A DNA stretch of 56,727 nucleotides from an uncultured Candidatus Saccharibacteria bacterium (GCA_964551595.1 CAZKCU010000003.1:16030-72756); one strand, 5' to 3'; positions 6,685 through 56,727 are shown, numbered from the stretch's first letter. The notes: a model not told the origin generated them from the sequence alone. Program-made: numbers and translations.

Positions 6685-9264
6685 ATGGGAAAAATCTCCT
6701 GGCATAATCTTACTTGGAAAGAAGTAACAAAATTATTATATTCTGACGTTAAGAAAGGCCTATCTGAGAAAGAAGTAAAATTTCGACAACGAAAATCAGG
6801 CAAAAACTTACTTCCAGAAGAAGAGCCTTTATCTCGATTAAGAATATTTTTAGAGCAATTTAGAAGCCCCCTAATTTATATTTTAGTAATAGCGGGAATT
6901 ATTACTTTGTTTTTGAGAGATTATACCGACGCCATTGTTATTTTCGGCGCTGTTTTTTTAAATACAATTGTTGGATTTTTTCAGGAAGACAAAGCATATC
7001 AAGCTTTAAGAGAGTTAAAAAAAGCGGTTAAACATACAGCTGAAGTTTTAAGAGAAGGAAATTTAAAAATTGTTGGTTCAGAAGAAGTTGTTCCCGGCGA
7101 TATTATTATTTTGAATCCAGGAGATAAAGTCCCGGCTGATGGCAGAATCATTGAATGCCATGATTTAAAAATTAATGAAATGGCTTTGACAGGAGAGTGG
7201 TTATCAGCAAAAAAATTGTCAGAGGTTTTGCCAAAAGAGAAACCTTTAGCTGATAGAGATAATATGGTCTATATGGGTTGTGTAGTTGAAGATGGAACGG
7301 GAAAAGTGATAGTTTCTGAAACAGGGGTTCAAACTGAAATTGGAAAAGTAGCTAAAATAATTAAGGAGACTAGGGAGGAAAAAACTCCCTATCAAAAAAA
7401 ATTAGCCGCTTTTTCTAAAATTGTCGGAATAGTTATTAGTATAATTTGTATTGGAATTTTTATTGAAGGGATGATAACTGGCGGAAAATTTATCGAAATG
7501 TTTACGACAGCCGTGGCAGTGGCAGTAGCAGCTATCCCTGAGGGATTACCAGTGGCAATGACAGTGATTTTAGCTCTCGGAATGCAAAGGATATTAAAAA
7601 AGAAGGGATTGGTGAGAAAATTAGCTTCAGCAGAAACATTGGGGAGCACTTCGGTGATTTGTAGCGATAAAACCGCCACCTTAACCGAGGGAAAAATGAA
7701 AGCTGGAGAAGTAATAGGGGATAAATTTTTAACTTTAAAAGCGGCTACTCTAACTTCAGCGGCTTTTATTGAAAATCCTACAGAGCCAAAAGAAGAATGG
7801 ATTTTCAGAGGGAGACCAACTGATAGGGCTTTACTTGAGGCTGGAATTGAAGTTGGAATTAACCCCAAAAAAAAGTTTGAAAAAAAGAAAATAGCTGAAA
7901 TCTCCTTTAACCCAATAAATAAATTTGCCGCCACTTTGTATAAGGAAAATGAGGGAAGTTTTTTGTATGCTTGCGGAGCTCCAGAGAAAATTTTAGAACT
8001 TTCAAGTTTAAAAAAAGAAGCTAAAGAAAATTTACAAAAAAAATTAGAGGAATTAGCTCAAAAAGGTTTAAGGGTAGTAGCTTCAGCTTACCGAAAAATC
8101 AAATTACCAGAGAACCGTTCTCTGTCTATTGAGGAATTATGTAAGGATTTAACCTTTCTTGGTTTTATCACCTTAAAGGACCCTGTTAGAAAAGAAGTAA
8201 AAGAAGCAATGAAAGTTTGTAGACGGGCAGGAATGAGTCCAATTATTATTACCGGTGACCATAAATTGACGGCAAAAGCTGTAGCTGAGGAGTTGGGTTT
8301 TAAAGTAAAAGAAGGAAATATTATGGAAGGAAGAGAGCTTGATCAACTTTCAGATGAAGAGTTTGAAAAAAAAGTGAAAGACATTCAAATTTATGCCAGA
8401 GTTGAACCAAAACATAAACTTCGTATTATTGAAGCATGGCAAGGAAAAGGAAAAGTAGTGGCGATGACCGGTGATGGAATTAATGACGCTCCGGCGTTAA
8501 AGAAAGCTGACATTGGAGTAGCTTTGGGTTCTGGAACCGAAGTGGCAAAAGAAACTTCAGATTTGATTTTATTAAATGATAGTTTTTCTATTATTGTGGC
8601 GGCAGTTGAAGAAGGGAGGGCAATTATTGATAATATCAGAAAGGTTATTACTTATTTATTATCTGATAGCTTTACCGAAATAATTTTAATCGGAGTGAGT
8701 CTTCTTTTGGGCTGGCCTCTTCCTATTTTAGCTGCTCAAATTTTGTGGGTGAATCTTATTGAAGATGGTCCCCTCGGCCTCTGTTTGGCTTTTGAACCAA
8801 AAGCAAAAGACCTAATGAAGCAGAAACCCCGAGGTCATGATATTCCTCTTTTAACCCGGGAGATGAAGGCCTTAATTTTTATTATCGGATTAGTGACCGA
8901 TCTTTTACTTTTAGGGCTCCTTTTCTGGCTAATAAAATATTCAGGTTATGAAATTCTTCATATCAGGTCAATAATCTTTACAGGACTTACCGTTGATTCG
9001 ATTTTTTATGTTTTCTCTTGTAAAAACTTAAGAAAAAATCTCTGGCAGATAAATCCTTTCTCCAATAAATTTTTAGTTTTTGCCTGGATTTTCGGTGTTA
9101 TAATGTTGATATCCGCTCTTTATCTTCCTCCATTACAAACACTTTTAAAAACAGTTCCCCTAAATCTTTTTGACTGGCAACTAATTTTAGGTTTAGGATT
9201 AATAAATATAATTTTAATTGAAGCAACTAAATGGCATTTTATTGCTAAAAAAGAATATGTTTAA
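6685..9264 (+). CDS. P-type cation-transporting ATPase (type II, Ca2+-ATPase-like) with variant motifs
   Basis: GDKVPAD, AIPEGLP, CSDKTATLT, KGAPE-like CGAPE, ITGD, MTGDGINDAPALK. Confidence 0.93.
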   Translation: MGKISWHNLTWKEVTKLLYSDVKKGLSEKEVKFRQRKSGKNLLPEEEPLSRLRIFLEQFRSPLIYILVIAGIITLFLRDYTDAIVIFGAVFLNTIVGFFQEDKAYQALRELKKAVKHTAEVLREGNLKIVGSEEVVPGDIIILNPGDKVPADGRIIECHDLKINEMALTGEWLSAKKLSEVLPKEKPLADRDNMVYMGCVVEDGTGKVIVSETGVQTEIGKVAKIIKETREEKTPYQKKLAAFSKIVGIVISIICIGIFIEGMITGGKFIEMFTTAVAVAVAAIPEGLPVAMTVILALGMQRILKKKGLVRKLASAETLGSTSVICSDKTATLTEGKMKAGEVIGDKFLTLKAATLTSAAFIENPTEPKEEWIFRGRPTDRALLEAGIEVGINPKKKFEKKKIAEISFNPINKFAATLYKENEGSFLYACGAPEKILELSSLKKEAKENLQKKLEELAQKGLRVVASAYRKIKLPENRSLSIEELCKDLTFLGFITLKDPVRKEVKEAMKVCRRAGMSPIIITGDHKLTAKAVAEELGFKVKEGNIMEGRELDQLSDEEFEKKVKDIQIYARVEPKHKLRIIEAWQGKGKVVAMTGDGINDAPALKKADIGVALGSGTEVAKETSDLILLNDSFSIIVAAVEEGRAIIDNIRKVITYLLSDSFTEIILIGVSLLLGWPLPILAAQILWVNLIEDGPLGLCLAFEPKAKDLMKQKPRGHDIPLLTREMKALIFIIGLVTDLLLLGLLFWLIKYSGYEILHIRSIIFTGLTVDSIFYVFSCKNLRKNLWQINPFSNKFLVFAWIFGVIMLISALYLPPLQTLLKTVPLNLFDWQLILGLGLINIILIEATKWHFIAKKEYV

Positions 9265-10373: not shown

Positions 10374-11330
10374 ATGATTTTATTTTATATTTTCATTTTT
10401 TTAACTTCTTTTGCTTTACTTTTTTGGTCGGCGAAATTGTTAGTCGATGCCTTAACTAGAGTGGCTCGATTTTTGGAATGGAGGGAATTTGTGGTAGCTT
10501 TTTTTGTTATGGCAATAGCGGGCTCTTTACCTAATCTTTTCGTTGGCATTTCTTCAGCCCTTCATAAAATTCCTCAACTTTCTTTTGGCGACATAGTTGG
10601 TGGAAATCTCGTTGACCTAACAATGGTTGCAGCTTTAGCGGCTTTAATTGCTAAAGGACTCCCAGCTAGAAGCAGGATGGTTCAAACTTCTTCAATTTTT
10701 ACTATCTGCATTGCCATTTTACCCTTACTTTTAATTTTAGATGGGGTTTTGGGGAGGGGAGACGGAATTTTCTTAATTTTAGTTTTCGCTTTTTACGTCT
10801 TTTGGCTTTTTTCCAAAGAAGAAAGATTTAAAAAAGTCTATGAAGAAAACAAAATTTCTACTGCTAAAGAATTTAAAGTTTTTATAAAAGACCTCGGAAA
10901 AGTAATTTTGGGAATAATCTTTTTATTAGCAGCTGCCGAAGGAATTGTTAAATCAGCCCAATTTTTTGCCGGAAGTTTTAATTTACCAATAGCCATAATT
11001 GGAATTTTAATTATTGGATTAGGGAATGCTCTACCTGAAGCCTATTTTGCAATTGCCTCTGCCAGAAAGGGCCAGACCTGGATGATTCTCGGTAATTTGA
11101 TAGGTTCAATTATGGTTCCAGCCACCCTGGTACTCGGGATTGTCGCTCTAATTTGTCCAATTGAGATTGTTGATTTTTCACCATTTGCCATAGGCCGGCT
11201 CTTTCTGGTAATTTCAGCTATATTTTTCTTGTGGGTTGTCCGAAGCGGTCAGAAAATTACCAAAAAAGAAGCCTTATTTCTATTAGGAACTTATATTCTC
11301 TTTGTCATAGTTGAAATTTTGATGAAGTAG
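10374..11330 (+). CDS. Ca2+/Na+ (CaCA family) antiporter
   Basis: Two alpha-repeat-like motifs, AGSLPNL...GDIVGGN and GNALPE...GNLIGS. Confidence 0.85.
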   Translation: MILFYIFIFLTSFALLFWSAKLLVDALTRVARFLEWREFVVAFFVMAIAGSLPNLFVGISSALHKIPQLSFGDIVGGNLVDLTMVAALAALIAKGLPARSRMVQTSSIFTICIAILPLLLILDGVLGRGDGIFLILVFAFYVFWLFSKEERFKKVYEENKISTAKEFKVFIKDLGKVILGIIFLLAAAEGIVKSAQFFAGSFNLPIAIIGILIIGLGNALPEAYFAIASARKGQTWMILGNLIGSIMVPATLVLGIVALICPIEIVDFSPFAIGRLFLVISAIFFLWVVRSGQKITKKEALFLLGTYILFVIVEILMK

Positions 11331-11400
11331 TGTTAATATACGTTAATCTCTACTCCAAAATTGCTTTCACAATTTTGGACGCCCCGACCGAGACTACAAC

Positions 11401-12405
11401 ATGAACAATTCCCTTTTTGTTTTAATATTATTTCTAATTGTGGCTGGAGGAGCGGCAATTTGGCTTTTTTACATTAGAAAATCAGCAATTGACCGCAGCC
11501 AGACAACAGCAATAAGAGATTTAGAAAGACGATTAACTGATTTAATGACTAACCAATTAAAGGAGATTCGAGGAAATGTAGATGGGACCTCTCGGGCAAT
11601 GCATGAACAAATTTCTTCTTTTACAAAAGAAACAGTTCAAATTCGTCAAGAATTAAAACAAGTTCAGGAGACAATGAAGGGTATTTCCTCTTCCCAGGAG
11701 ATTTTTAAATCCCCGAAACTTAGAGGGCAATGGGGAGAAGCTTCTTTAGAGCACATCTTGAGCCAGCATTTCCCCAAAGAACTTTATCAAACTCAATATC
11801 TTTTTTCTTCTGGAGAACAAGTTGATGCAGTATTAAAACTCCCTGATGGCAAATTGTTGCCAATTGATGCTAAATTTTCCTCTGTCAATTTTGAAAAAAT
11901 GAAAGAAGCTGAATCTGATAAAGAAATAGCTCTTTTCCGCAAAAAATTTATTGGAGACGTGAAATTTAATATAGATAAAATTTCTTCAAAATATATTTTA
12001 CCCTCAGAAGGTACTCTCGATTACGCTTTAATGTATATTCCGGCAGAAGCTATTTATTATGAAATAATGGCAAAAGAAATAGATTTAATAAAATATGCTC
12101 AAGAAAAAAAGGTTACTTTAGCCTCACCTAATACTTTTTATTCAGCTTTGCGAACAATCGAACATTGGTTTCGAAGTATGCGGATTTCTCGCCAAACTCA
12201 GCAAATTCTAAAAAGACTTGACCGTGTTTATCAAGATGCTCAAAAATTAAAGAACGATTTTAGAAAACTGGGAAACCATTTAAGAGATGCTTCATCAAGC
12301 TATGATACTTCAGGAAAACGACTTTCTTTACTTGGAGAAAGAATAGAAAGATTAGCCGAGGTTGACGAAACTAAAAAATTAAAAAAAGGAAAACAAAACT
12401 CGTAG
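11401..12405 (+). CDS. rmuC: DNA recombination protein RmuC
   Basis: N-terminal TM, coiled coil, RGQWGE, VDAVLKLPDG..LPIDAKF, YALMYIPAEAIY. Confidence 0.92.
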   Translation: MNNSLFVLILFLIVAGGAAIWLFYIRKSAIDRSQTTAIRDLERRLTDLMTNQLKEIRGNVDGTSRAMHEQISSFTKETVQIRQELKQVQETMKGISSSQEIFKSPKLRGQWGEASLEHILSQHFPKELYQTQYLFSSGEQVDAVLKLPDGKLLPIDAKFSSVNFEKMKEAESDKEIALFRKKFIGDVKFNIDKISSKYILPSEGTLDYALMYIPAEAIYYEIMAKEIDLIKYAQEKKVTLASPNTFYSALRTIEHWFRSMRISRQTQQILKRLDRVYQDAQKLKNDFRKLGNHLRDASSSYDTSGKRLSLLGERIERLAEVDETKKLKKGKQNS

Positions 12406-45582: not shown

Positions 45583-45650
45583 TTGACAGAGGTCTTTGCC
45601 CCCTTTATTATTAAGATAGATATAGTCGGACAATGTAGGTAAAGCGACGC
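45583..45650 (+). promoter_or_regulatory. Recombinase promoter with a 28-bp dif-like site in the leader
   Basis: TTGACA(45583)-17-TATTAT(45606), then TAGTCGGACAA-TGTAGG-TAAAGCGACGC (45623-45650). Confidence 0.7.
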
Positions 45651-45694
45651 TTTATAGATAGCCAAAAGAGACTCTTAACCAGTCCCCTATAAAT

Positions 45695-46651
45695 ATGAAA
45701 AAATCTAATATACCAATAATAAAACATATCCCCGACTTTTTAGATTATTGTGAAGTTGAAAAAGGTTTAGCAGATAGAACTCAAGAAAATTATCAGCACT
45801 ATCTCCAAAAGCTCGTCTCCTGGCTGAAAAAGACTAAAAAAGAGACTCTCCTACCGCATGAGCTTACGGCTGAGGATATCTGGGCTTACCGCCTATATTT
45901 ATCTCGTTATACAGACGAAAAGGGCCGTCCCTTGAAGAAAGTCACTCAGAACTACTATTTAATCGCTCTAAGAGCCCTCCTGGGTTATTTTACTGCCAAG
46001 GACGTGATTTCGCTCCCTGCTGATAAAATAGCCCTTCCAAAGGACGCCAGAGCCGAAAAAACGGTAAAATTCCTTAATTTAGACCAGGTTGAGAAGCTTT
46101 TACTGGCTCCCAATACCAGTACCCCAATCGGCTTAAGGGACAGGGCTATTTTGGAATCTCTTTTTTCAACCGGTCTTAGAATAGCCGAACTGGTAGCCCT
46201 AAACCGAGAACAGTTTACCAATATAAAAGATAAAAAGGATCTGGAGCTTGGCATTATTGGTAAAGGGGCTCATCCCCGGACAGTTTACTTTTCTGAAAGA
46301 GCTCTTTCTTGGGTTAAGAAATATCTGGATACCCGCAAGGATAAAGAAAAACCATTATTTATACACTATAGAGCCAGACAAAATGCCGAGCCTCGTCTCA
46401 CGGCCCGCTCAATAGAAAGAATCGTCAAAAAATATGCCATCTTAGCTGGCGTTCCTATCTTCACCACTCCCCACACCCTTCGCCACAGCATGGCAACTGA
46501 TCTTTTAACTCAAGGTGTTGATTTAAGAACCATTCAGGAATTTTTAGGTCACAGAAATATTGTCACAACTCAAATATATACCCACGTAACAAACAAACGC
46601 CTCCGCGACATCCACCGCCAGTTCCACAGCGGCAAAAATTTAAAAGAATAA
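45695..46651 (+). CDS. Xer-family tyrosine recombinase
   Basis: SAM-like N-domain; LRDRAILESLFSTGLRIAEL (R), GKG (K), TPHTLRHSMAT (HxxR), LGH, TTQIYTHV (Y); no IntI-specific insertion. Confidence 0.95.
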   Translation: MKKSNIPIIKHIPDFLDYCEVEKGLADRTQENYQHYLQKLVSWLKKTKKETLLPHELTAEDIWAYRLYLSRYTDEKGRPLKKVTQNYYLIALRALLGYFTAKDVISLPADKIALPKDARAEKTVKFLNLDQVEKLLLAPNTSTPIGLRDRAILESLFSTGLRIAELVALNREQFTNIKDKKDLELGIIGKGAHPRTVYFSERALSWVKKYLDTRKDKEKPLFIHYRARQNAEPRLTARSIERIVKKYAILAGVPIFTTPHTLRHSMATDLLTQGVDLRTIQEFLGHRNIVTTQIYTHVTNKRLRDIHRQFHSGKNLKE

Positions 46652-46657
46652 AAAGAG

Positions 46658-46681
46658 GCCTATCGATTTCTTGATAGGCCC
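46658..46681. terminator. Terminator between convergent genes
   Basis: ggcctatc-gatttctt-gataggcc. Confidence 0.7.
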
Positions 46682-46706
46682 CATATACCTAGAGCTTTAT
46701 ACTCCA

Positions 46707-47216
46707 TTACTTCTTCAAGCCCTTTAAAAGCTCTTTCTTCTCAATTACCTCACTAATAAGGTGAATCTCCCATCCATAAAGAGTGTTAGGAAACTGTAGG
46801 CTGGCGAATTCTATCGCATCTTTCTTGTTAACAAAATAAAAATAAGAAAGAAATGCTCGAGGGTTTAAACCGACCCGGCCATCGGCCACAATCTCCCAGT
46901 TTCCTTCTGGTTGAAAAGAAAGAATCCCAAGGGTCATTAGAATATGATGGAATCTTTCTTTTCGGTCTGAAAAGCGACTTTCCGAGAAGAAATCTTGATA
47001 ATGCGGCCAATTTACTGTTGGCTTGCCGGATTTTGATATTTTAATGAACTCCTTGACCTTTCCTTCAAAATCCTGTACCCATAATTCCTTAGCACATTCC
47101 TCACACGTCAGACCGTCTTTAGATATTTTCACGGTCATGCCCAGATAAGTAAAAGAAATATCTTCATACTTTCCGGGGCTATTCTGCTTGCATCTATAAC
47201 ACAATCTCTTTTCCAT
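46707..47216 (-). CDS. Hypothetical protein with an N-terminal CxxC...CxxC zinc finger
   Basis: LCYRCK...TCEECAK; GGGGG RBS. Confidence 0.7.
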   Translation of the reverse strand: MEKRLCYRCKQNSPGKYEDISFTYLGMTVKISKDGLTCEECAKELWVQDFEGKVKEFIKISKSGKPTVNWPHYQDFFSESRFSDRKERFHHILMTLGILSFQPEGNWEIVADGRVGLNPRAFLSYFYFVNKKDAIEFASLQFPNTLYGWEIHLISEVIEKKELLKGLKK

Positions 47217-47256
47217 CTTTTCCCCCTTATCTTTATATTAAGAACTTATAAATAAA

Positions 47257-47288
47257 ATATCGCATAAATATAATTAAATGTCGCACAA
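47257..47288 (+). other. Two tandem recombinase half-site-like boxes
   Basis: ATATCGCATAA (47257) and ATGTCGCACAA (47278). Confidence 0.55.
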
Positions 47289-47319
47289 TATTATCTACTT
47301 TTTTGCCTATGTTTTATGT

Positions 47320-47799
47320 TTAAGGTAGGGTCTCACATGCTAGGCCATCATTATCTCTATCAAGATCATGTATGTCATTATTTATTCCTCCACAATATTC
47401 AAAAGCCTCTTGAGCTTCTGCATGGGTTCTAAAATCGGAACAATTATATGCATTATAGGAACAAATTATTGTTTTAACTGGCGATGAAGGTGCCGTAGAT
47501 GGCGGCTCTAGTTCGGGTTCATATAAGGGTTCTGGTTCTGAGATGGGTTCGGGTTCAGGTTCGAGTTCAAGTTGGGATTCGGCTTCTGGGATTTGATTTT
47601 CGGTTCTTTGTGATTCCTCTTGTTCTGTTGTTTTGAGCTCCTCGTCAGACTCATCCTCTCTTAACGGCTCAGAGACCGAAGCTGGAAGTTTAGGAATAAT
47701 TTCTTCTTGAGTTGTGTTGTCACCAGATAAAGCAATAATAACAAAAACAATAATAAATCCTCCAAATCCAATAAGTGCTAATTTTAAAATTTTCTTCAT
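47320..47799 (-). CDS. Membrane-anchored protein with Pro/Glu linker and Excalibur Ca-binding domain
   Basis: N-terminal TM, EPEPEP linker, YNCSDF...AQ...[14 protein letters not shown]. Confidence 0.85.
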
Positions 47800-47893
47800 A
47801 ATTTTATCTTATAGCTCTTTAGAAAATTGGCGGTCTACCCTCAATCTGACCCCATTTTAAAAGAATGTCAAGGTAATAAAAAACCGCCGGAAT

Positions 47894-47921
47894 ACGACGA
47901 ACAGTACGCCTTGTGCGACAT
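47894..47921 (-). other. 28-bp dif-like site (degenerate)
   Basis: Minus strand: ATGTCGCACAA-GGCGTA-CTGTTCGTCGT. Confidence 0.55.
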
Positions 47922-47944
47922 TTTCCTCAACTTCGGGCTAAATT

Positions 47945-48586
47945 TTAATTCCATAAATCTTTTTCTATGACCGTCCAGTCTTTCCGCCTCTTTAAAGATT
48001 TCTCTACTTTTTTAAAGTGCCCTCTTTTTTCAATAAATCCATCTCCGCTTATTTCTTTTCCTTTTTTAGTAAAGAAATCTTTGTTTGTATATTTTCTTTT
48101 AAGAATAAATTGAGCCCACTCTTCTATTGGTCTTTTTAATTCATATTGGGCCCGATAAGTGGAAAACATACCTCCAATTCCACTTTTCTCCAATAAATCA
48201 GCATCAAAGACAATTTTAGATTCTAATGTTTCTTGCGCTCCTCTTTCTTTATGAAGTTTTACGCAATAAGCAATTTGTTCAATTTCTTTCTTTGTATAAC
48301 CCATTTTAGATAAGTCTCGTTTCGTTATTCTAGCACCTACTTCTGCATGTTTTTTATAATCTCTAGCCTCAGTAACTCCGATATCATGAAGAATAATCGC
48401 TGGAATTAAAACAGAATAATCAACGTCCTTAATTGTTTCAGCAATAACTAATCCCCTATATAAATCCCTTATTATATGTTCCCAATTATGCTGAGGTTTG
48501 TTTGCTTTTAAATATTTCTTCTTTGCGTAGTTATAAACCCTCTTAATCCTTTTGTCTTTTTTAATAAAATAGTTAATTTTTTTCAT
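47945..48586 (-). CDS. HD-domain phosphohydrolase
   Basis: HNWEHIIR, IILHDIG, HAEVGA, VFDADLLE; ATG 48586 lies 7 nt after the -10 box. Confidence 0.88.
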   Translation of the reverse strand: MKKINYFIKKDKRIKRVYNYAKKKYLKANKPQHNWEHIIRDLYRGLVIAETIKDVDYSVLIPAIILHDIGVTEARDYKKHAEVGARITKRDLSKMGYTKKEIEQIAYCVKLHKERGAQETLESKIVFDADLLEKSGIGGMFSTYRAQYELKRPIEEWAQFILKRKYTNKDFFTKKGKEISGDGFIEKRGHFKKVEKSLKRRKDWTVIEKDLWN

Positions 48587-48593
48587 ATTATTC

Positions 48594-48626
48594 ATTCTAA
48601 CAAAAAACTGCCTTCTTGGCGATTTT
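48594..48626 (-). promoter_or_regulatory. Portable hairpin-promoter, leaderless
   Basis: tcgcca-agaaggcagttttttgt-tagaat-gaataat-ATG. Confidence 0.7.
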
Positions 48627-48675
48627 TTTTGAATTTAGCTCCGGGGACTAGACTATATTAAAATCTGTTTGAGAC

Positions 48676-49251
48676 TTATTGTTCTTCATGTTTTACTTCT
48701 TCTGGAAACAATAACTGAAATGGATAACCTACGTAATTTCTTTTTATTTGTCCACAACCAACGCTTTTAAGAAAATCAATCATTTCTTCTGTAATCTTTT
48801 TTGGGTCCACCTTTTCTTCTTTCCCAATATACTCAATTTCTACAAAATCTCCAAGCCCTTTTACTGAATCTACGGCAATCTCATAATCCTTATATGTCCA
48901 AACTTTTCTTAATTTGTCTACTTTAACAAGAGGCTTAAAATTAAGAACATCTAATATCTTCCTTAATTGAGTTAAATCTTCTATTTTGGTTTCGTATTCA
49001 TCACAATACTGACTTCTACCATTTTCATCATAATGCCAGTTTTTATAATTTATAGAATATTTACCGCCAGAATCTCTTAACCTCAACCACTTCTTAACTG
49101 GACGAACATCAATAAAATTACGATGAATTGGAGAAAAATATTCATCTATTTGCTGTCTTTCTTTTTGAAAGTCAGCATTCTTTTCTAAAAATTCTATTAA
49201 GGGTTTACCATTTTCAATAGTAACTTGAATTTCTATTTCAATGTCTTTCAT
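48676..49251 (-). CDS. CYTH-domain protein (class IV adenylate cyclase-like)
   Basis: EIEIQV, QIDEYF, LRLR, EYETKI, KLRKVW, GDFVEIE. Confidence 0.88.
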   Translation of the reverse strand: MKDIEIEIQVTIENGKPLIEFLEKNADFQKERQQIDEYFSPIHRNFIDVRPVKKWLRLRDSGGKYSINYKNWHYDENGRSQYCDEYETKIEDLTQLRKILDVLNFKPLVKVDKLRKVWTYKDYEIAVDSVKGLGDFVEIEYIGKEEKVDPKKITEEMIDFLKSVGCGQIKRNYVGYPFQLLFPEEVKHEEQ

Positions 49252-49257
49252 GTTTTC

Positions 49258-49290
49258 ATCTTACCAAAAAACCGCCTACTTGGCGATTTT
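49258..49290 (-). promoter_or_regulatory. Portable hairpin-promoter, leaderless
   Basis: tcgcca-agtaggcggttttttgg-taagat-gaaaac-ATG. Confidence 0.7.
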
Positions 49291-49331
49291 ATATTTATAT
49301 CCCCTACTCTTTTGTACCCTTTGTCTATTTT

Positions 49332-49388
49332 TATACCTAGTCTGATTATTTTGCGACCCTGAGTCATCAATCCCATATTGTCTGACTA
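49332..49388 (-). other. Composite dif-like site with an adjacent accessory box
   Basis: Plus strand: TTTTGCGACCC-t-GAGTCATCAAT-CCCATA-TTGTCTGACTA, same layout as 54946-54985. Confidence 0.55.
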
Positions 49389-49411
49389 TCCATAACTTAT
49401 TTCGCCCTGTC

Positions 49412-50368
49412 TTATTTCAAGTATTTCTCAATATTTTGTAGATGTTCCTCGTAGGTCTTGGCAAGATGAGTTATTCCCTCGCTATCGTGCAGATAATACA
49501 AATATTCGCTGTCTTCGGAGTTTATCACGGCGTCAATCGCCGCCAATCCCGGATTGCAGATCGGAGACGGCGGGCGACCTTTGTGGATATAGGTATTATA
49601 AGGAGAATCGATTTTATAATCATCCGGCTTTATAACTGGCCACCAATTTCCCGGATCTCCTAAAGCGTACTGTATAGTTGCATCTATTTGGAATGGCATG
49701 TCTTTCAGCCATCTGTTCCAGATTACCCCGGCGATTAAGGGCATCTCCTCTTCATTTGCGACTTCTCTCTGAACTAAAGATGCCAAAACTATCAGAGTAT
49801 CGTTTTTTATGTTTTTTTCTGCAGCTTCTTTGAATAAATCTGTCGTTTTCTCATTAAATTGGTTTTTCATTCTTTTTGCAACATCCGCACCTGTAAAATC
49901 TAAATTTAAAAGGTAAGTGTTGGGAAAGAGATAACCTTCGTTTGCTTCAACAAGAAATTCTCCTTTTGCAAGATTACTCCAGTTCAGTTCTTTTTGCAGT
50001 TTTTCTGCGATTTCTGTCGCCCGCAGCCCTTCGGGTATAACCAGCCATTTTTGATATGCATGATTCACAAGTGTATCCGCCAACTGCCAAGCATCCATTG
50101 CTTTGGAAGCCATATATCCGCCCGGCTCTATTTTCCCTTCCCACCCTTTTCTTTTTAATACAAACTTAAATGCCCATTCGCTTCTTATATATCCTTGCTC
50201 TTTTAATTTGGGAATAAGTTCTTCTTCGGTTGTGTCAAGATTGATAACAATTCTCTCCATTTCTAATTCTCTTTCCGGTGCCGAAAACAAAAAATAATAT
50301 ATTCCAATGGGAATTCCTATCAGTAATACTATTGCACCTACTATTACGATTTTCTTATTTCTACTCAT
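49412..50368 (-). CDS. mltG: Endolytic transglycosylase MltG family protein
   Basis: N-terminal TM, IPEG, EGYLFPNTY, LASLVQRE, LQIDAT-like FQIDATIQY, SPYNTY..GRPPSPICNPG. Confidence 0.9.
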   Translation of the reverse strand: MSRNKKIVIVGAIVLLIGIPIGIYYFLFSAPERELEMERIVINLDTTEEELIPKLKEQGYIRSEWAFKFVLKRKGWEGKIEPGGYMASKAMDAWQLADTLVNHAYQKWLVIPEGLRATEIAEKLQKELNWSNLAKGEFLVEANEGYLFPNTYLLNLDFTGADVAKRMKNQFNEKTTDLFKEAAEKNIKNDTLIVLASLVQREVANEEEMPLIAGVIWNRWLKDMPFQIDATIQYALGDPGNWWPVIKPDDYKIDSPYNTYIHKGRPPSPICNPGLAAIDAVINSEDSEYLYYLHDSEGITHLAKTYEEHLQNIEKYLK

Positions 50369-50486
50369 AGTTTCTTAATAAAACGGCACTTTTTGTTGGC
50401 ATATAATTATTCTCGATATACTGTCTGATAATATACCAAAACCATCTTTTGAGAAATCGATCGAAATCAGCTCTCTTAACAATAAT

Positions 50487-50663
50487 CTATTTACTTAAAA
50501 TCTCAAAAGCTTGATAGACTAAAAATGCTGGCCAGACCAAAGCTTTTAAAAAACCAAGAACCCCCATCCAAAATGTTTCAGAATGACTGATAAAATAGAC
50601 GGCTGCGCCGATAAGTCCCAGGCCGTAAACCGCGCTGGCCCCGCCTTTATGAATGTTGCACAT
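50487..50663 (-). CDS. Small membrane protein (58 aa), not in the ORF track
   Basis: MCNIHKGGASAVYGLGLIGAAVYFISHSETFWMGVLGFLKALVWPAFLVYQAFEILSK. Confidence 0.75.
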   Translation of the reverse strand: MCNIHKGGASAVYGLGLIGAAVYFISHSETFWMGVLGFLKALVWPAFLVYQAFEILSK

Positions 50664-50745
50664 AGTTTTTTATTTCGAGCGAAGCGAGAAAAAATGTTCT
50701 GCCTCGCAGGTTCTTATTAATTATTTTTACACTTCGACCTAAATT

Positions 50746-51273
50746 TTATTTTATAAGACCCTTTTCTTTAGCTAATAATATTGCCGCAATGGTTGTCATA
50801 CATTTAATTTTCCCTTGCTTTATTAATTTCAACACGCTACCAATTTTTAAAAATTTAATCTTTTTTTTACGCTCCGCCAAATCATTATTGATTTTCTTTT
50901 TTTTCAATTTCTTAACATCTCTAACAAGGAATATCGTGCATTTATCAGTGACTCTTGTAGGGTTCGAAAATGCATTACCTATATTTTTAAAATCGTCTCC
51001 TATAAAACCAGCTTCTTCTTTTAATTCTCTTTTAGCTGCTTCTTCTGCGCTTTCTCTTTTATCAATTCTTCCCCCCGGTAAATTAATAATTTTCTTATTT
51101 ACCGCAGGACGAAATTGTTCTATAAATATTAATTCTTCTTTTTTTGTTAAAGCAACTACTACTGTCCCTCTTGGGCAAAAAGTTATCACAGAATACTGGA
51201 TTCCTTTTGGTTTTTTATAAAGGTTATGTTTTAGCACTAAATATGTATCTTCTATCTCCCATTCTTTGCTCAT
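50746..51273 (-). CDS. NUDIX hydrolase (ADP-ribose pyrophosphatase-like)
   Basis: LPGGRIDKRESAEEAAKRELKEEAG Nudix box; EQFRPAV. Confidence 0.92.
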   Translation of the reverse strand: MSKEWEIEDTYLVLKHNLYKKPKGIQYSVITFCPRGTVVVALTKKEELIFIEQFRPAVNKKIINLPGGRIDKRESAEEAAKRELKEEAGFIGDDFKNIGNAFSNPTRVTDKCTIFLVRDVKKLKKKKINNDLAERKKKIKFLKIGSVLKLIKQGKIKCMTTIAAILLAKEKGLIK

Positions 51274-51317
51274 AATCTTAAAAATTTTTTCCAGCTTCGG
51301 CCAAAATTTTGATTATT

Positions 51318-51779
51318 TTATACTAAAATTCCGCCGGCGTAGAAAAACGTATAAATTTCTTTATCTCTCTTGAGAATCTTTTCCGCGCCAGCTAACTCAT
51401 CAATAGAACCTTTAAAATCCGGCTGGCAAATATATTTATAATCATCTTTCTCCTATTCTACTTTTTTCCAAATTCTTACATTTTGCCAATTTGCTATAAG
51501 TGCTTTCCTTAAAATTTTATCCATTTCCTCTTCGGACATCCCTTTATAGTTTCCATAATACGACATTGACCAAACAGCTTTCTCCTGATAATAAACAGCT
51601 TCCAGTCCCATAAAAATTCCCTTTCCATTATAATAAACATCCCGATAAAACCAATCCCCTTCTCTATATTCAAGTTGATCTGAACCCTTAAAAACCGGCT
51701 TTACTTTTCCACCAGCTCCGGCATAAGTTTTCGTCCTCGCATTTAATAAAAATTGTAAGAGTTTCTCTTTATCTACCAT
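51318..51779 (-). pseudogene. DUF5680-like protein interrupted by an in-frame TAG at 51455-51453
   Basis: FLLNARTKTYAG...YRDVY.G...F.G.E; the frame continues 44 codons after TAG to YTFFYAGGILV. Confidence 0.75.
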
Positions 51780-51824
51780 TTTTTATTTTTATTATCCCCT
51801 ACTCTTTTATATTTGGGCTAAATT

Positions 51825-52106
51825 TTAATTATTTCCGAAACCAATCTTTTCTTGCCCTCCAGTTTCTCTTTTTTCGAGAAGCTGAGTTTCAAGTGGACCA
51901 AATTTCTTTTCGTATTCATTAAGAGATTTACCCAGAAGTAAATAAATTCGCTTTGCATGTTTCGGTGATACTTGAAACTGACGACCTTGATTCCCTGAAA
52001 TCAATAGGAAATCAAAAACTTCTTCCCCAAAGCGTATATTAACGTTAGAGAGCGCGTAAAGAATCGGATCAAGATTAATTTTAATTTGTTTTTGTTCTTC
52101 TGCCAT
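51825..52106 (-). CDS. DUF3467-like hypothetical protein
   Basis: SPKHAKRI...LNEYEKKFG pattern. Confidence 0.6.
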   Translation of the reverse strand: MAEEQKQIKINLDPILYALSNVNIRFGEEVFDFLLISGNQGRQFQVSPKHAKRIYLLLGKSLNEYEKKFGPLETQLLEKRETGGQEKIGFGNN

Positions 52107-52173
52107 ATTTTCAAAAATTTAATTTTAATTAATTCTTCGACTTTTTTTAAATTCCCTTTAACTTCGGGCTAAA

Positions 52174-52215
52174 TTATTCTTCAGTTGAAACTCTGGCTAA
52201 AATTAAAGCTTTCAT
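52174..52215 (-). pseudogene. Serine recombinase N-terminal stub MKALILARVSTEE
   Basis: Matches the resolvase N-terminal YARVST motif; stop coincides with the shared junction motif. Confidence 0.6.
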
Positions 52216-52242
52216 AAATTGTATAATTATTCCACAGTAACA

Positions 52243-52701
52243 CTAAAAGAAGATACGCAAAGTGCCCTGTATCCATTTTATAGCTCGTTTCAATATGCTC
52301 ACTTTCTCATTCATCATTCCCATACTGGAATTACATTGTCTACAAACCCATCCCCTTATCTCGCCAGTTTCGGAGTTGTGGTCTAATACAACATCGTTTT
52401 TATATTGCCTGATTATCGTTCTATCACAAACGGGGCAATGAAAAGGCTTACCTATAGGTGGTCGTGGGTGTGTTTTTTCATACTCAATCCTTATTTTGAT
52501 GGGTATGGGTTTTCTCCACTTGCGGCATTCCTTACACTCACCTCTTCTTGAGACTTTGCCTCTAATAGTTCTTTGATTCTTTTCAAACTCAAAAATGCTT
52601 TTCCGTTGTTGGCAAGTGCGGCATATTTTTGTTTCGTTGAAACAGGAATCACAAAACTTTCCATGTGTCGCCTTATTACGATTACATTCAATACATTTCA
52701 T
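52243..52701 (-). CDS. Hpy99I-like beta-beta-alpha-Me (endonuclease VII type) restriction endonuclease
   Basis: KICRTC...FEKNQ...CKECRK, FHCPVC, LDHNSETGEIRGWVCRQCNSSMG. Confidence 0.75.
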   Translation of the reverse strand: MKCIECNRNKATHGKFCDSCFNETKICRTCQQRKSIFEFEKNQRTIRGKVSRRGECKECRKWRKPIPIKIRIEYEKTHPRPPIGKPFHCPVCDRTIIRQYKNDVVLDHNSETGEIRGWVCRQCNSSMGMMNEKVSILKRAIKWIQGTLRIFF

Positions 52702-53522
52702 AAAAGATTCTTAATTCTTTTTTGTGCTATCTTATAATACTTATTAGATAATTCACTACCTATATATTTTCTATTGTTGAGAATAGCCATTTTTGCTGTC
52801 GTGCCACTACCTATGAAGGGGTCGTATACAATATCACCTTTATTACTCCATGAGATTATATGGTCTTGTGCCAACTTTTCTGGGAATATGGCGGGATGTT
52901 CATAAGCAATTTTATCACTTGCGGAGTGCCCCTTTCCTATAAGATATTTCCACACATTTGTTCGCCTGCCGTATTTAGAATATCCAGCCCTACTTTGTTT
53001 CAATAGTGAGCCATCATACAGCCGTTTTGTGCCGTTATCGCCACCTCGCTCCTCTTTATTCTCCCTGTCTTTTATAAGATTTATTGTCTTTGGTGTATCT
53101 TTGCTTAATATGAACATATACTCAAATGTCTGCCAGTATGTTTTATTATTTCCAACTGCTCCTCGTGGTGTTTTAAGGTATATCATTGTGTCAAAAAGAT
53201 TAAAACCTATCTGTTTGAAATATAGAGCGTGTCTGAAAGACGTTCCTGTTTCGTTTCCCTTAACTGTTTGATCTCCGACAACCCACACAACTACACCCCC
53301 CCTTTTAGTAACACGATATAGCTCTTGTGCTATCAATTCAAATTCACTAAAAGTGTCGCCACCATATTTTCGTATATTATCATACGGAGGCGAGGTTATT
53401 GTTAAATCAACAAAATTGTTAGGCATTTTTGCCATAGTGTATAGGCAATTTTCATTATAGATTTTGTTTAATTTAAGACCCCTCTCCTTTATTGGACTTT
53501 TGTTTTTATTTTGTCTTTGCAT
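52698..53522 (-). CDS. N4-cytosine/N6-adenine DNA methyltransferase (beta class)
   Basis: TSPPY, HPAIFP, VYDPFIGSGTT; overlaps the endonuclease start. Confidence 0.92.
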   Translation of the reverse strand: MQRQNKNKSPIKERGLKLNKIYNENCLYTMAKMPNNFVDLTITSPPYDNIRKYGGDTFSEFELIAQELYRVTKRGGVVVWVVGDQTVKGNETGTSFRHALYFKQIGFNLFDTMIYLKTPRGAVGNNKTYWQTFEYMFILSKDTPKTINLIKDRENKEERGGDNGTKRLYDGSLLKQSRAGYSKYGRRTNVWKYLIGKGHSASDKIAYEHPAIFPEKLAQDHIISWSNKGDIVYDPFIGSGTTAKMAILNNRKYIGSELSNKYYKIAQKRIKNLL

Positions 53523-53631
53523 ATTCTAGAAATCTGTTTAATTCCTTTTTATCAATTCTAAACTCTTTGCCTATTTTGTAGGCTTTCAATACTAATTCCC
53601 TTACAAGGTAGAATTTTTTTTGGTCATTCAT
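53506..53631 (-). pseudogene. HTH_17 excisionase-like gene with the central helices deleted (41 aa)
   Basis: MNDQKKFYLVREL//VLKAYKIGKEFRIDKKELNRFLEY. Confidence 0.6.
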
Positions 53632-53646
53632 GATTGTAAGTATTCA

Positions 53647-54039
53647 TTATTTAATTTCTTCTTCAATTTCTTCGTCAATTTTAGCTAAAGATTTTTTCAT
53701 TTCTTTTATAATTAAAAAAAAGAGCATTTTCTTGTTAAACTCCCTTTCTTCCTTGCCTGTTATTATTTTTTCAAAGGATTGAAAAACTTCCTTAGGAAAA
53801 TAAAATTGAAGATCGCTTATCATATCTATGTCATAACTGTTCTTTGTCATCCCGTCTAATATTTCTTTTTTGGCCTTATTAAACACTTGCTCTAATTTAT
53901 CTCGCCTCAATCTTAAGTGTTGAATTTTTATTTCTTTTTTCCATTTTCGGTAGTTTAAAAAATGTGTAATAAATTGAGCAACAGTTACGATGAGGCCACC
54001 AATTATAACACCAATTAAACCGATTATAGCTTCTGACAT
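53647..54039 (-). CDS. Hypothetical protein with an N-terminal TM
   Basis: IIGLIGVIIGGLIVTVAQFI followed by a charged helical domain. Confidence 0.7.
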   Translation of the reverse strand: MSEAIIGLIGVIIGGLIVTVAQFITHFLNYRKWKKEIKIQHLRLRRDKLEQVFNKAKKEILDGMTKNSYDIDMISDLQFYFPKEVFQSFEKIITGKEEREFNKKMLFFLIIKEMKKSLAKIDEEIEEEIK

Positions 54040-54126
54040 AGTTTTAATAATTTAATTTATGTTTCAACACTGCTTTCATTATACTTTACAATTATTTACA
54101 GGACAATGGAGCAAATATAAGTTTAA

Positions 54127-54224
54127 ATGTCGCACAAGATGCGTAGTGCGACGTAAAAAACCACTTTCTTGAGAGAGCGGCGGCCGAAATCGGGACTACT
54201 GCCCTAGTTAGACAATATTAGAGC
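54127..54224 (+). repeat. Cassette trailer copy A, with a symmetric 28-bp site
   Basis: ATGTCGCACAA-GATGCG-TAGTGCGACGT, terminator-like hairpin, ccctagttagacaatattagagc. Confidence 0.75.
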
Positions 54225-54238
54225 TTGTTTAGTGCGGG

Positions 54239-54622
54239 TTATTTATTTTTTGCTTTGTATTTTGCAACTAGAAAACCAATCTGTTGCCCGACGGCTAACG
54301 ATAATAAGAGTATGGTAATTTTTTTATTGCTCCCAATAATGCCCTCGATTATATAAGAAATTATGGCAAAAATTAATAAAAAAATAAAAAGGGCGTTTCT
54401 TTTTTGTCTATTGGCAAATTTATCGCCAATATATTGTCCAATGTTCAATACAAAGAAAAACATACTAATATTTTTTTCTTTTCCAGTGATACTTTCAAGT
54501 ATATAAAAAAATATAGTAAAAATTAATAAAAAAATCGAAAGAAAGTTTTTTCTTGTTACAATATATATTGATTTTTGATACCACTTAGTCATATAGTTGT
54601 TTACTTTTATAATTTTATTCAA
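54239..54622 (-). CDS. Membrane protein with two internal ~49-aa repeats, start uncertain
   Basis: IFLLIFTIFFYILESITG...IGQYIG versus IFLLIFAIISYIIEGIIG...VGQQIG. Confidence 0.6.
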   Translation of the reverse strand: MNKIIKVNNYMTKWYQKSIYIVTRKNFLSIFLLIFTIFFYILESITGKEKNISMFFFVLNIGQYIGDKFANRQKRNALFIFLLIFAIISYIIEGIIGSNKKITILLLSLAVGQQIGFLVAKYKAKNK

Positions 54623-54928
54623 AAAAACCTACCTGCCTAATAAAATCAACCAGCTTTGAAATATAACCATAGGCTAATTACTATATATATCTAGCAATAA
54701 GAGGCCAAACAAAACACAAAATCGCAAGTATTCTTAAAATCCATTTTTCTGAATTTTTTGTCGCTTTTGTGCAAAATATAAAAAAACAACTCCTACAATC
54801 CAAGAACCAAAAACTGCTATAACCATAAATTAGTTCAATATTTAATCTTATGAATTTGACCTTTCTTCTCTAATCCTACCAAAAAACCGTCTAAGTAAAT
54901 AGGCGGAATTCCCGGATCCGCGGGTAAG

Positions 54929-55085
54929 ATTCTAACTAATACAAATTATGCGACATTGACTCCTCATTCATAGATTGTGAGACAAGATAAGCTTTTGACT
55001 CCTCATTGATGCGTAGTGCGACGTAAAAACCGCCTTCTTGAGAAAGCGGCTGAACTGATCTCCCCTAGCTGGACGATGTTAGAAC
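54929..55085 (+). repeat. Cluster of three 28-bp dif-like sites plus cassette trailer copy B
   Basis: Sites at 54929-54956, 54958-54985 and 54997-55024, then aaaaaccgcc hairpin and ccctagctggacgatgttagaac. Confidence 0.75.
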
Positions 55086-55101
55086 CTGTTTTTAAAAGAT
55101 G

Positions 55102-55128
55102 AGAGAGCGTTCGTTAGGAACGCTCTCT
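55102..55128. terminator. Hairpin terminator
   Basis: agagagcgttc-gttag-gaacgctctct. Confidence 0.7.
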
Positions 55129-55149
55129 TGAGAAAATCCTCTTGGCTGA

Positions 55150-56055
55150 TTAATGTTCGAATATCCTTATACTAAGCTTTCCTCCGTGCTCTGTCGCTTC
55201 TTTTATTGAGTGCAACCAAAATACTTCCTGAAACGATTTAGATTCTTTTTCGGCTTCCCGCATATAATCTACTATTTGCTTTGTGTATTCTCGTAGACTG
55301 ATGGCGAAAATTCTGGATAGTTCATCGTTAACAAATCCTTCCAAAAATGAGTCTGTTCCTCTCAGAAATCTTTTCCTAGATTGTCTTTGGCGAGTTAGAA
55401 CTTCTGCCATATCTCTAAGTATACAAAGTATATCGCTAACCATTCCAGTTAAGACTTTTGATACCTCATGAGCTTTTTCGAGGTTTTGGTTGACCTTTTT
55501 CCACTTAATACTTGAAATCGAATCATATTGGGGAATTAAATCAATTCTTACGGCTTCCTCGCCGTTATACATATAATTCTGCAACTTACTATCTCCAGGA
55601 ATAACTCCCTTTAAGCAAAAGAGGTAAACTGTCTTGCCCAGGGCTTTCAATTCTTTATGCGGTATTACTACCCGGAAAAAGGAAATCCCTTCATCAGCTA
55701 AGATAATTTCTTTATAATCTCTCCCGTTTATTCTATCGATTATTACTATGTCTCCTACGTTGTCATTGTTCACGCCCATTGCTACAGGGTTCTCTACGGG
55801 TAATCCTAGGCTCTGGCAGTACTTTAAGAATCCAAAAGATTCGGGAGGGTAAAATTTAAGCAAATATCTTCCGAATCTATATGTGTGTTCTGTTAGTATT
55901 TCGGGCTCAAGGCTCGAAAGATAACCTAAAATTACCGCCAAATCTATACCTTTAGGTGAATAAAAGTCTTTTATTCCTATCTTTTTCAAATCCCCCTTAG
56001 CCTTCATTCTGTGATACTGACCTACGAATTCTGTGCCTATTATTTTATTTTTCAA
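55150..56055 (-). CDS. Hypothetical protein, probable atypical kinase fold (Kdo/WaaP/RIO-like)
   Basis: YLLKFY, GLPVENP, GVIPGDSKLQNYM, VRIDL; TTGACA-17-TATAAT promoter and AGGAGG RBS. Confidence 0.55.
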   Translation of the reverse strand: MKNKIIGTEFVGQYHRMKAKGDLKKIGIKDFYSPKGIDLAVILGYLSSLEPEILTEHTYRFGRYLLKFYPPESFGFLKYCQSLGLPVENPVAMGVNNDNVGDIVIIDRINGRDYKEIILADEGISFFRVVIPHKELKALGKTVYLFCLKGVIPGDSKLQNYMYNGEEAVRIDLIPQYDSISSIKWKKVNQNLEKAHEVSKVLTGMVSDILCILRDMAEVLTRQRQSRKRFLRGTDSFLEGFVNDELSRIFAISLREYTKQIVDYMREAEKESKSFQEVFWLHSIKEATEHGGKLSIRIFEH

Positions 56056-56222
56056 GGTGCCCTCCCTCCTTATTATTGACTTATGATTTATTTTTTATGA
56101 TTTATTTTTTAGTTAATTTAGAATTCTTAATTATACAATTCATATTTAATTTTGTCAATAAAAAGCGGCATAGTGGCTTAAAATATTTTGCTCCAGAGGT
56201 AAGGCTCGAACCAATAAAAATC

Positions 56223-56312
56223 TTGACTCCTCATTGATGCGTAGTGCGACGTAAAAAACCGCCCAAATAAATAGGCAGAATCTCGGCTCCCTTGGCTGGA
56301 CGATGTTAGAAC
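56223..56312 (+). repeat. Cassette trailer copy C, with a 28-bp site identical to 54997-55024
   Basis: GACTCCTCATT-GATGCG-TAGTGCGACGT, hairpin, ccttggctggacgatgttagaac. Confidence 0.8.
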
Positions 56313-56317
56313 TTTTT

Positions 56318-56674
56318 TTATTTAGATTTCATAATCTTACTAACTTTAACCAATATAGCGCCTTTGGCGGGCAGTCCTCTATTTTCTTTTAATTTCTTTA
56401 CATATTGAATCCATTTCCCTTTTTTAAAATATTTACACCTACCAAGAAATTGGTATCCTTCCCACTTCTTATCCCAAACTATTAATGCAACATTATTGTT
56501 TTTAAGAATGTTTTCTACTGTAATCTTCATAAAACTATCGGTTACCAATATCTCATCGTTGCCCATAACCTTACAACAAGCGACAGCGATAGCATAAGGT
56601 TTACCATCTCTAACAGTGGCGAGGGTCATAGGGTTTTCTTCAACTATCTTTTTAATCTTTGGGGTAATTTTCAT
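56318..56674 (-). CDS. Pyridoxamine 5'-phosphate oxidase-like FMN-binding protein
   Basis: LATV..GKPY, D.FM..T.ENILKNNNVALIVW, GYQFLG. Confidence 0.85.
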   Translation of the reverse strand: MKITPKIKKIVEENPMTLATVRDGKPYAIAVACCKVMGNDEILVTDSFMKITVENILKNNNVALIVWDKKWEGYQFLGRCKYFKKGKWIQYVKKLKENRGLPAKGAILVKVSKIMKSK

Positions 56675-56680
56675 ATTTCC

Positions 56681-56714
56681 ATTCTACCAAAAAATCGCCT
56701 TCTTGGCGATTTTC
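56681..56714 (-). promoter_or_regulatory. Portable hairpin-promoter, leaderless
   Basis: aaaa-tcgcca-agaaggcgattttttgg-tagaat-ggaaat-ATG. Confidence 0.72.
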
Positions 56715-56727
56715 TGAAGCTAACTCC

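Follow-up and report, generated by a model that had tools for sequence, protein, structure and literature searches.

A putative dif site directly upstream of a XerD-like recombinase gene at the probable replication terminus of CPR/Patescibacteria

The DNA analyzed here (the window) is a stretch of 56,727 nucleotides from an uncultured Candidatus Saccharibacteria bacterium (GCA_964551595.1 CAZKCU010000003.1:16030-72756). It harbours a xer gene preceded by a promoter and, between promoter and start codon, a site of 28 bp in which two inverted 11-bp arms flank a 6-bp centre, the format of a dif site (Table 1). All genes from 42.9 kb through xer are located on the plus strand and all genes from 46.7 to 56.7 kb on the minus strand. 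Further sites with related arms are found in the latter region.

Table 1 Coordinates of the promoter, the 28-bp site, xer and the related arm sites in the window
Feature	Position	Strand	Remarks
-35 hexamer TTGACA, xer promoter	45583..45588	+	promoter scan 11/12, 17-nt spacer
-10 hexamer TATTAT, xer promoter	45606..45611	+	ends 11 nt before the site
dif-like site, left arm TAGTCGGACAA	45623..45633	+	family consensus atGTCGcAcAA
dif-like site, central region TGTAGG	45634..45639	+	presumed strand-exchange region; conservation equals that of the arms
dif-like site, right arm TAAAGCGACGC	45640..45650	+	family consensus TaAAgCGACnt
xer, 318 aa, XerD-like tyrosine recombinase	45695..46651	+	open reading frame and domain searches
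Terminator-like hairpin	46655..46682	-	where the plus-strand genes ending in xer meet the minus-strand genes
Half-site ATGTCGCACAA+TATTA, left arm only	47278..47293	+	consensus left arm, right arm absent
Full site ATGTCGCACAA GGCGTA CTGTTCGTCGT	47894..47921	-	left arm 11/11, right arm 7/11 compared with 54127; similar site in L008
Reference site of the initial annotation, ATGTCGCACAA GATGCG TAGTGCGACGT	54127..54154	+	consensus left arm and inverted left-type arm
Partial site: unrelated left part, GATGCG, TAGTGCGACGT	54997..55024	+	within ~95-nt repeated element
Partial site, second copy	56225..56252	+	35 nt identical to the copy at 54995

The Xer protein contains the Pfam Phage_integrase domain (PF00589, 1.9e-37) and an N-terminal SAM-like domain. 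Its best matches among the NCBIfam models were the generic tyrosine recombinase model, XerD (213.2 bits, cutoff 329.6) and XerC (210.5 bits, cutoff 335.2); these XerD and XerC scores, as well as that for archaeal XerA (180.6 bits, cutoff 220), were all below the equivalog cutoffs. The protein does not belong to the XerS family (102.5 bits against a cutoff of 267; the models searched included no XerH), and integron-integrase models matched residues 234-303 only (88.7 bits against a cutoff of 265). The nearest solved structure is XerD of E. coli (1A0P, 1.8e-38), and alignment with 1A0P showed that the catalytic R, K, H-x-x-R, H and Y residues are all conserved (GLR, IGKG, HxLRH, GH and IYTH). 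These comparisons classify the enzyme, by sequence, as a XerD-like recombinase of a separate lineage and not as an IntI. A second Xer-like gene was found neither in the window nor in 80 orthologous loci of ±10 kb. Two of the orthologous reading frames are unusual. The xer frame of L048 (L numbers designate individual loci or contigs) encodes 586 aa owing to an in-frame insertion past about residue 266, which could be an intein, and that of L010 has a stop after 87 codons, which could reflect a frameshift or an assembly error.

The initial annotation had noticed the site at 45623 by its likeness to the symmetrical site at 54127, with 8 of 11 positions shared in each arm and an equal 6-bp spacing, and an arm-by-arm scan of both strands returned the same values. 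At least 16 matches over the 22 arm positions were found in the 56.7-kb window only at 45623, at 54127 itself and at 47894 on the minus strand. In 1000 Markov-1 shuffles such matches occurred with a mean of 0.084 per window, or 0.033 if both arms had to match at 8 positions or more, so that the likeness to 54127 is by itself merely suggestive. Weak when taken alone, the argument nevertheless pointed in the right direction, because the 54127 site bears the consensus left arm of the family. A weight matrix derived solely from 14 sites upstream of orthologous genes in other genomes gave the 45623 site 41.2 bits, with the 54127 site as runner-up in the window at 21.4 bits.

The 29 protein-anchored sites yield the consensus atGTCGcAcAA TGTAGG TaAAgCGACnt, from which the left arm in the window deviates at 3 of 11 positions. 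The central six bases carry 1.4-2.0 bits per position and are conserved like the arms. In the outer 7 nt the right arm mirrors the left, so a single protein could read both arms, whereas the inner 4 nt differ consistently (ACAA versus the mirror of TAAA), which makes the site polar. Complementarity between the arms follows the same division: pairs 3-6 are complementary in 93-100 % of the sites, pair 10 in about one third and pairs 8-9 never.

It had been put forward as decisive for the proposal whether the motif occurs upstream of orthologous CPR xer genes. The ortholog set comprised 80 listed loci of ~20 kb each, on contigs taken from one genome per species, with 56-92 % identity. All 80 belong to CPR/Patescibacteria (Paceibacter, Nealsonbacteria, Staskawiczbacteria, Magasanikbacteria, Falkowbacteria, Buchananbacteria and others), and the motif was present in most of them, standing out right before xer against diverged intergenic surroundings. 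When each ~20-kb locus was scanned in full, the highest-scoring matrix hit (29-47 bits) was located 5-236 nt ahead of xer, on the xer strand, in 23 of the 28 closest loci. Among the 52 loci that did not contribute to the matrix a hit was obtained in 29, located at most 300 nt upstream in 20 of them, 0.3-3 kb upstream in 8 and elsewhere in one. Most loci missed by the matrix still show diverged 11-6-11 sites when inspected by eye, for example GGTTCGCATAA TAATAC TTAAGCGAACC. The right arm is degraded in L010, L014, L017 and L026, of which L014, L017 and L026 have an intact xer. Scanning with the matrix showed no other full site of the 45623 type in the window or in any ~20-kb locus.

The converse search started from the site. 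Metagenome contigs were searched with the pattern GTCGNANAATGTAGGTWAAGCGAC, which gave at least 118 matching stretches, 80 of which were kept as loci. A xer gene lies directly downstream on the same strand in 73 of these 80 (gap 1-334 nt, median 43); in one, L156, it is adjacent but inverted, and in the remaining six the contig is too short. L156 (metagenome contig Ga0209542_10034182) is the sole locus with a gene divergent from the site. Thus xer adjoins the site in all 74 readable loci, and a site without xer was found in none of the 80, indicating that site and gene are strictly linked. As far as sampling shows, the site appears to be single-copy. Viral contigs contained zero matches to the dif pattern. 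The presence of the motif upstream of the orthologs and its adjacency to xer in the site-first loci bear out the view of the initial annotation that the motif belongs to the recombinase: in most of the ortholog set and in all readable loci of the site-first set the gene adjoins the site, as in a linked Xer/dif module. The 0.03-0.08 matches expected per shuffled window would, on their own, not overwhelmingly argue against a functionless chance likeness to 54127, but conservation in well over 100 independent loci and the strict linkage to xer refute it, and the probability left for such a coincidence is negligible.

The position of the site relative to the promoter is also conserved. A promoter scan placed the start of the 45623 site exactly 11 nt past the -10 box, just as had been claimed. 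From the -10 box, transcription is predicted to start at about 45617-45620, so the site would begin ~5 nt into the xer transcript; the open reading frame follows 44 nt past the site. The site is thereby located in the predicted early transcribed region of xer, which is the geometry of an autoregulatory operator. Among the 102 distinct loci with sufficient upstream sequence, 81 showed a strong sigma-70-type promoter (TTGACA-16/18-TATTAT) in the 80 nt preceding the site, and in 71 of these 81 the end of the -10 box is 9-13 nt from the site, the distance being 11 nt in 38 loci, 13 nt in 18 and 10 nt in 10. The sequences of the promoter spacer differ among loci, and the distance from site to ATG ranges from 1 to 334 nt. 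In distant lineages inspected by eye a -10-like box immediately precedes the site, flipped sites included; in others the promoter is located downstream of the site. The operator geometry is not shared by all lineages, since there are distant ones in which the site is flipped or 0.6-3 kb away. In one metatranscriptome run a contig starts at 45609 and the preceding contig ends at 45563, the gap spanning the -35 box and the promoter spacer. This break is consistent with the predicted start, at a depth of ~5x, in contig-based data that contain further gaps.

Several other features of the xer promoter and leader were noted. The spacer between the -35 and -10 boxes is often an inverted repeat, CAGGnn-TTTT-nnCCTG, followed by TTATTAT (L003, L004, L012, L086, L095, L114 and others), with compensating changes between genomes; it may be a terminator that belongs to the upstream gene and overlaps the xer promoter. 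A C-rich box, CCA(C/G)TCCCCTAtAAAT, abuts the xer start codon at 45676-45694 and is also present in L003, L004, L005 and L011; a GGAGG-type ribosome-binding site is absent.

As the site lies within the predicted transcript and its outer arms could pair, the conserved sequence might act as RNA, forming a stem-loop in the 5' leader of the xer mRNA with an effect on its stability or translation. The leaders of L007, L009, L027, L029, L035, L042 and L046 contain inverted copies of the right arm and spacer that would form long hairpins, in keeping with this explanation; a second hairpin in these leaders carries a left-arm-like sequence. However, only four arm pairs are reliably complementary, and these are invariant, while pairs 1, 2 and 7 change with no compensating substitution and pairs 8-9 never form. 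The presumed loop is conserved like the stem. The leader in the window folds no better than shuffled sequence (z = -0.49), and no Rfam match was obtained at the gathering score, nor at E <= 1. Furthermore, in L156 and in distant orthologs the orientation of the site with respect to xer is reversed, or the site precedes the promoter. A role as leader RNA is considered very improbable.

The genomic surroundings of xer point to the replication terminus. The cumulative GC skew of the window peaks at 44-48 kb, with smaller plus/minus switches elsewhere in the window. In the loci with at least 5 kb on each side, GC skew is positive upstream and negative downstream of xer in 41 of 48, and the reverse was never seen; the coding strand is plus for 96 % upstream and 16 % downstream, with a switch in 39 of 48, skew (judged over ±10 kb per genome) and gene orientation being mutually dependent. 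The site-first metagenome loci, which were retrieved separately, showed the orientation switch in 8 of 9 scorable cases. Upstream of xer synteny is kept across genomes (mur genes, ftsW, murG and gltX), and in 80 other CPR genomes the DNA within 10 kb of xer contains no homolog of any of the 14 downstream genes of the window (46707-56674, all on the minus strand). The terminus flank downstream of xer is hypervariable. Retention of the convergent switch beside non-homologous DNA argues that it is a structural feature, probably the terminus.

The dif site of E. coli is GGTGCGCATAATGTATATTATGTTAAAT (PMC2731167). It is matched at 13 of 28 positions by the window site and at 15 of 28 by the family consensus, and two distant CPR sites linked to xer, ACTTCGCATAATGTAGATTAAGCGAAGT and ACTTCGCATAATGTATATTAATACACGT, reach 20 of 28 and 19 of 28, respectively. 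The core CGCAnAATGTA is common to E. coli dif and CPR sites. On these alignments the window site would be the diverged end of a graded series that begins near classical dif.

Taken together, the 11-6-11 architecture, the position at the switch in orientation and skew, the graded similarity to dif and the XerD-like enzyme argue that the sequence at 45623-45650 is likely to be the chromosomal dif of a CPR/Patescibacteria bacterium, located at the replication terminus directly upstream of the recombinase gene. It had been proposed earlier to be either an autoregulatory site or a primary, dif- or attI-like site. The same evidence upholds the dif part of that proposal; the attI part fell, with an enzyme that is not IntI and a site without abutting cassettes. 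By analogy with difSL/xerS and difH/xerH, in which dif is linked to the gene of a single Xer (PMC5357621, PMC2731167), the site is probably a dif genetically linked to the gene of what is probably the only Xer. What we infer for this system is that Xer binds and recombines the site, depends on FtsK, acts as the sole recombinase and represses its own gene. Xer monomers would bind both arms, one protein reading the alike outer 7 nt. A chromosome dimer at division would bring two copies of dif together, and a Xer tetramer would exchange strands across TGTAGG to give monomers. Bound to dif ~5 nt past the predicted transcription start of xer, Xer would also hinder RNA polymerase and keep its own expression low. 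The conserved spacing of promoter and site makes such autoregulation plausible, and repression of xer by its product via the site in the leader is likely, to judge from this arrangement.

The fixed spacing of promoter and site might equally be expected if the site were solely an operator for xer, bound by Xer or by another protein, and dimers were resolved at a site elsewhere. Left-arm copies also overlap the promoters of a neighbouring LAGLIDADG gene in several genomes, as an operator might, and the scans for other full sites covered the window and loci of ~20 kb. Such an exclusive operator function is nonetheless held to be improbable. An 11-6-11 site with a conserved 6-bp centre suits recombination and exceeds what a repressor needs; moreover, the site is located at the orientation and skew switch and grades into canonical dif. 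No other full site of its type was found in any locus, and xer is adjacent in every readable locus retrieved by the site.

Several known systems resemble this arrangement. In streptococci and lactococci dif likewise adjoins the gene of its recombinase, the single XerS; it lies at the terminus and forms one genetic module with xerS (PMC5357621, PMC2731167), but difSL is 31 bp long with an 11-bp centre, whereas the CPR site has the classical 11-6-11 format and its protein is not XerS. For xerS, PMC2965235 and PMC5357621 yielded no mention of a fixed spacing between promoter and dif. XerH of Helicobacter and Campylobacter is a single recombinase, with dif linked to its gene in most species (PMC2731167), and XerH dosage appears to be tightly controlled (PMC3325230). 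However, difH (..TGAAAAC...TTTTCAAA..) is unrelated to the CPR site and the CPR enzyme is nearer to XerD and XerA. The XerC/XerD-dif system of E. coli and B. subtilis shares the 28-bp 11-6-11 format, its site lying at the skew maximum (PMC2731167), and XerD (1A0P) is the best structural match of the CPR enzyme. The classical system differs in having two paralogous recombinases that read different arms and whose genes are far from dif; in the CPR system the outer arm halves are the same and the only xer seen adjoins the site. Archaeal XerA/dif and Legionella XerL/dif are single-recombinase systems with 28-bp-type sites (PMC2958812; 10.1101/2021.09.12.459815), but the XerA model scores the CPR enzyme below its cutoff (see above). 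In integrons the primary recombination site attI abuts intI in a comparable way; the CPR enzyme lacks the IntI signature, however, and the site has no neighbouring attC cassettes. Identification as an integron attI was rejected on the basis of the protein models, the conserved flanks (housekeeping genes on one side and xer on the other) and the lack of adjoining cassettes. In Tn3-family transposons res overlaps the promoter region of TnpR, and binding of TnpR represses its own gene. The likeness lies in a recombinase target that overlaps the promoter region of the recombinase; TnpR is a transposon serine recombinase acting on a res of three subsites, in contrast to the tyrosine recombinase and chromosomal dif-like site of CPR. 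What sets the CPR case apart is that a putative dif of the classical 28-bp format is combined with a XerD-like enzyme and holds a fixed position at the start of the xer transcript. In the full-text literature on dif/Xer in combination with CPR, Patescibacteria, Parcubacteria or Saccharibacteria the system was not found to be described, an absence that is no proof.

If correct, CPR would be a third lineage with the linked arrangement known from XerS and XerH, and a very large radiation of reduced genomes would appear to resolve dimers with a probably single XerD-like enzyme encoded beside a classical-format dif. The site would provide a sequence-defined terminus marker for CPR/Patescibacteria genomes, helpful for quality control of closed metagenome-assembled genomes, for the placement of replichores and for the interpretation of replication-rate measures. 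The fixed spacing of promoter and dif makes autoregulation of the recombinase simple to test. A 28-bp site with one small enzyme could furthermore aid marker excision in the few Patescibacteria that can be manipulated, and the neighbouring half-sites hint where mobile DNA may enter CPR genomes.

These neighbouring sites are confined to the region downstream of xer. The window contains six copies of the heptamer GTCGCAC/GTGCGAC, always between 47.28 and 56.25 kb, and the exact consensus left arm of the family, ATGTCGCACAA, is present in the sites at 47278, 47894 (minus strand) and 54127. Most close orthologs (L003-L046) have the 16-mer half-site on the plus strand within the first 1.5 kb past xer, at a density of 0.37 per kb compared with a background of 0.02-0.05 per kb (~10x). 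GATGCG followed by TAGTGCGACGT is common to 54127, 54997 and 56225 and lies within the ~95-nt repeated element, which combines this arm with a minus-strand terminator hairpin and the conserved box CTCCCCTAGCTGGACGATGTTAGAAC. Full sites of the GATGCG type are also present in L004 and L008. The half-site, or its variant TTGTCGCACAATAAAA, is often located directly past the xer stop codon, and it marks a border at which conserved DNA ends and non-syntenic DNA begins. Arm sites with other centres (TACGCC, GATGCG) stand between single genes over the 10 kb after xer; examples in orthologs are L003 14945-15025, L004 12573-12639 and ~16840, L006 12761-12835 and L008 15590-15645. The two types of site are 4 nt apart in L008 and 6.2 kb apart in the window. 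Their location between genes may represent a cassette-like or pdif-module-like organisation.

The sites downstream give some weight to an explanation in which 45623-45650 is a primary integration site of the attI or attB kind that captures cassettes or Xer-exploiting elements, instead of or besides resolving dimers. Further copies of the arm motif are restricted to the hypervariable 10 kb downstream of xer, some being half-sites of hybrid appearance, none of the 14 genes there is syntenic elsewhere, two phi29-like phage contigs carry a full related site, and integrative elements are known to exploit dif sites (10.1101/2021.09.12.459815). On the other hand, the enzyme is no integron integrase and nothing variable is inserted at 45623 itself, where conserved housekeeping synteny forms the left flank and xer the right. 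The secondary centres GATGCG, TACGCC and TATTAT differ from TGTAGG and should bar full exchange of the related sites with dif. Recombination junctions were not observed between 44.0 and 56.7 kb in four DNA metagenome runs and one RNA metagenome run. A primary integration site of this kind is quite improbable, slightly more so than a pure operator. Two further candidates for mobility were rejected. Contig 'joints' that resembled excision or inversion extend over just 20-48 nt on one side and connect repeated intergenic elements, and were ascribed to branch points of the assembly. An interpretation of the full site, xer and the downstream half-site as attL and attR of one element is incompatible with the orientations of the arms and with the central regions.

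A broader role of the arm motif, exceeding that of dif, can be imagined, in which Xer would repress, besides its own gene, neighbouring genes with promoters composed of arm half-sites, the motif would organise single-gene units in a hypervariable terminus region and phages would mimic the site. This remains a rather doubtful proposal. If true, units bounded by Xer sites with several classes of central region would be a Xer-driven counterpart of integron cassettes and of the pdif modules of Acinetobacter.

Some observations on mobile DNA near xer and on phages can be added. A gene for a LAGLIDADG endonuclease of ~165 aa (PF00961) is located just after xer in L026 (~7594-8290), L030 (~10995-11570), L034, L036, L041 and L048, and in several genomes its promoter appears to be formed by tandem arm half-sites (TTGTCG-17-TATAAT). 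The phi29-like phage contigs L246 and L238, IMG/VR contigs with genes for collar and connector proteins, contain in non-coding DNA the full 11-6-11 site ATGTCGCACAA TATTAR TTTTACGACRT (L246 88-140, contig of 16.7 kb; L238 80-103, contig of 15.8 kb). Beside the full site, L246 has a half-site consisting of the left arm and TGTAGG. These phage sites could be mimicry of the host Xer site. Among viral contigs the 17-mer of the half-site gave 18 matches, with the full site in L238 and L246 only, and a degenerate pattern retrieved no full sites on viral contigs beyond these two. Another 29 viral matches, to GATGCGTAGTGCGAC, were dismissed as chance, being located in coding DNA of unrelated phages, mostly of high GC content.

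At the end of the window (56669-56727) many differing contig continuations begin at 56681-56713 in several metagenomes. This stretch lies within a repeated start-of-gene/terminator element that is also present at 48582 and 49246, which is probably why the assembly ends there. Within the variable region, a gene for an endonuclease-VII-like His-Me finger protein and one for an N6/N4 DNA methylase overlap on the minus strand (52243-53522), and the two look like a mobile or restriction-modification-like pair.
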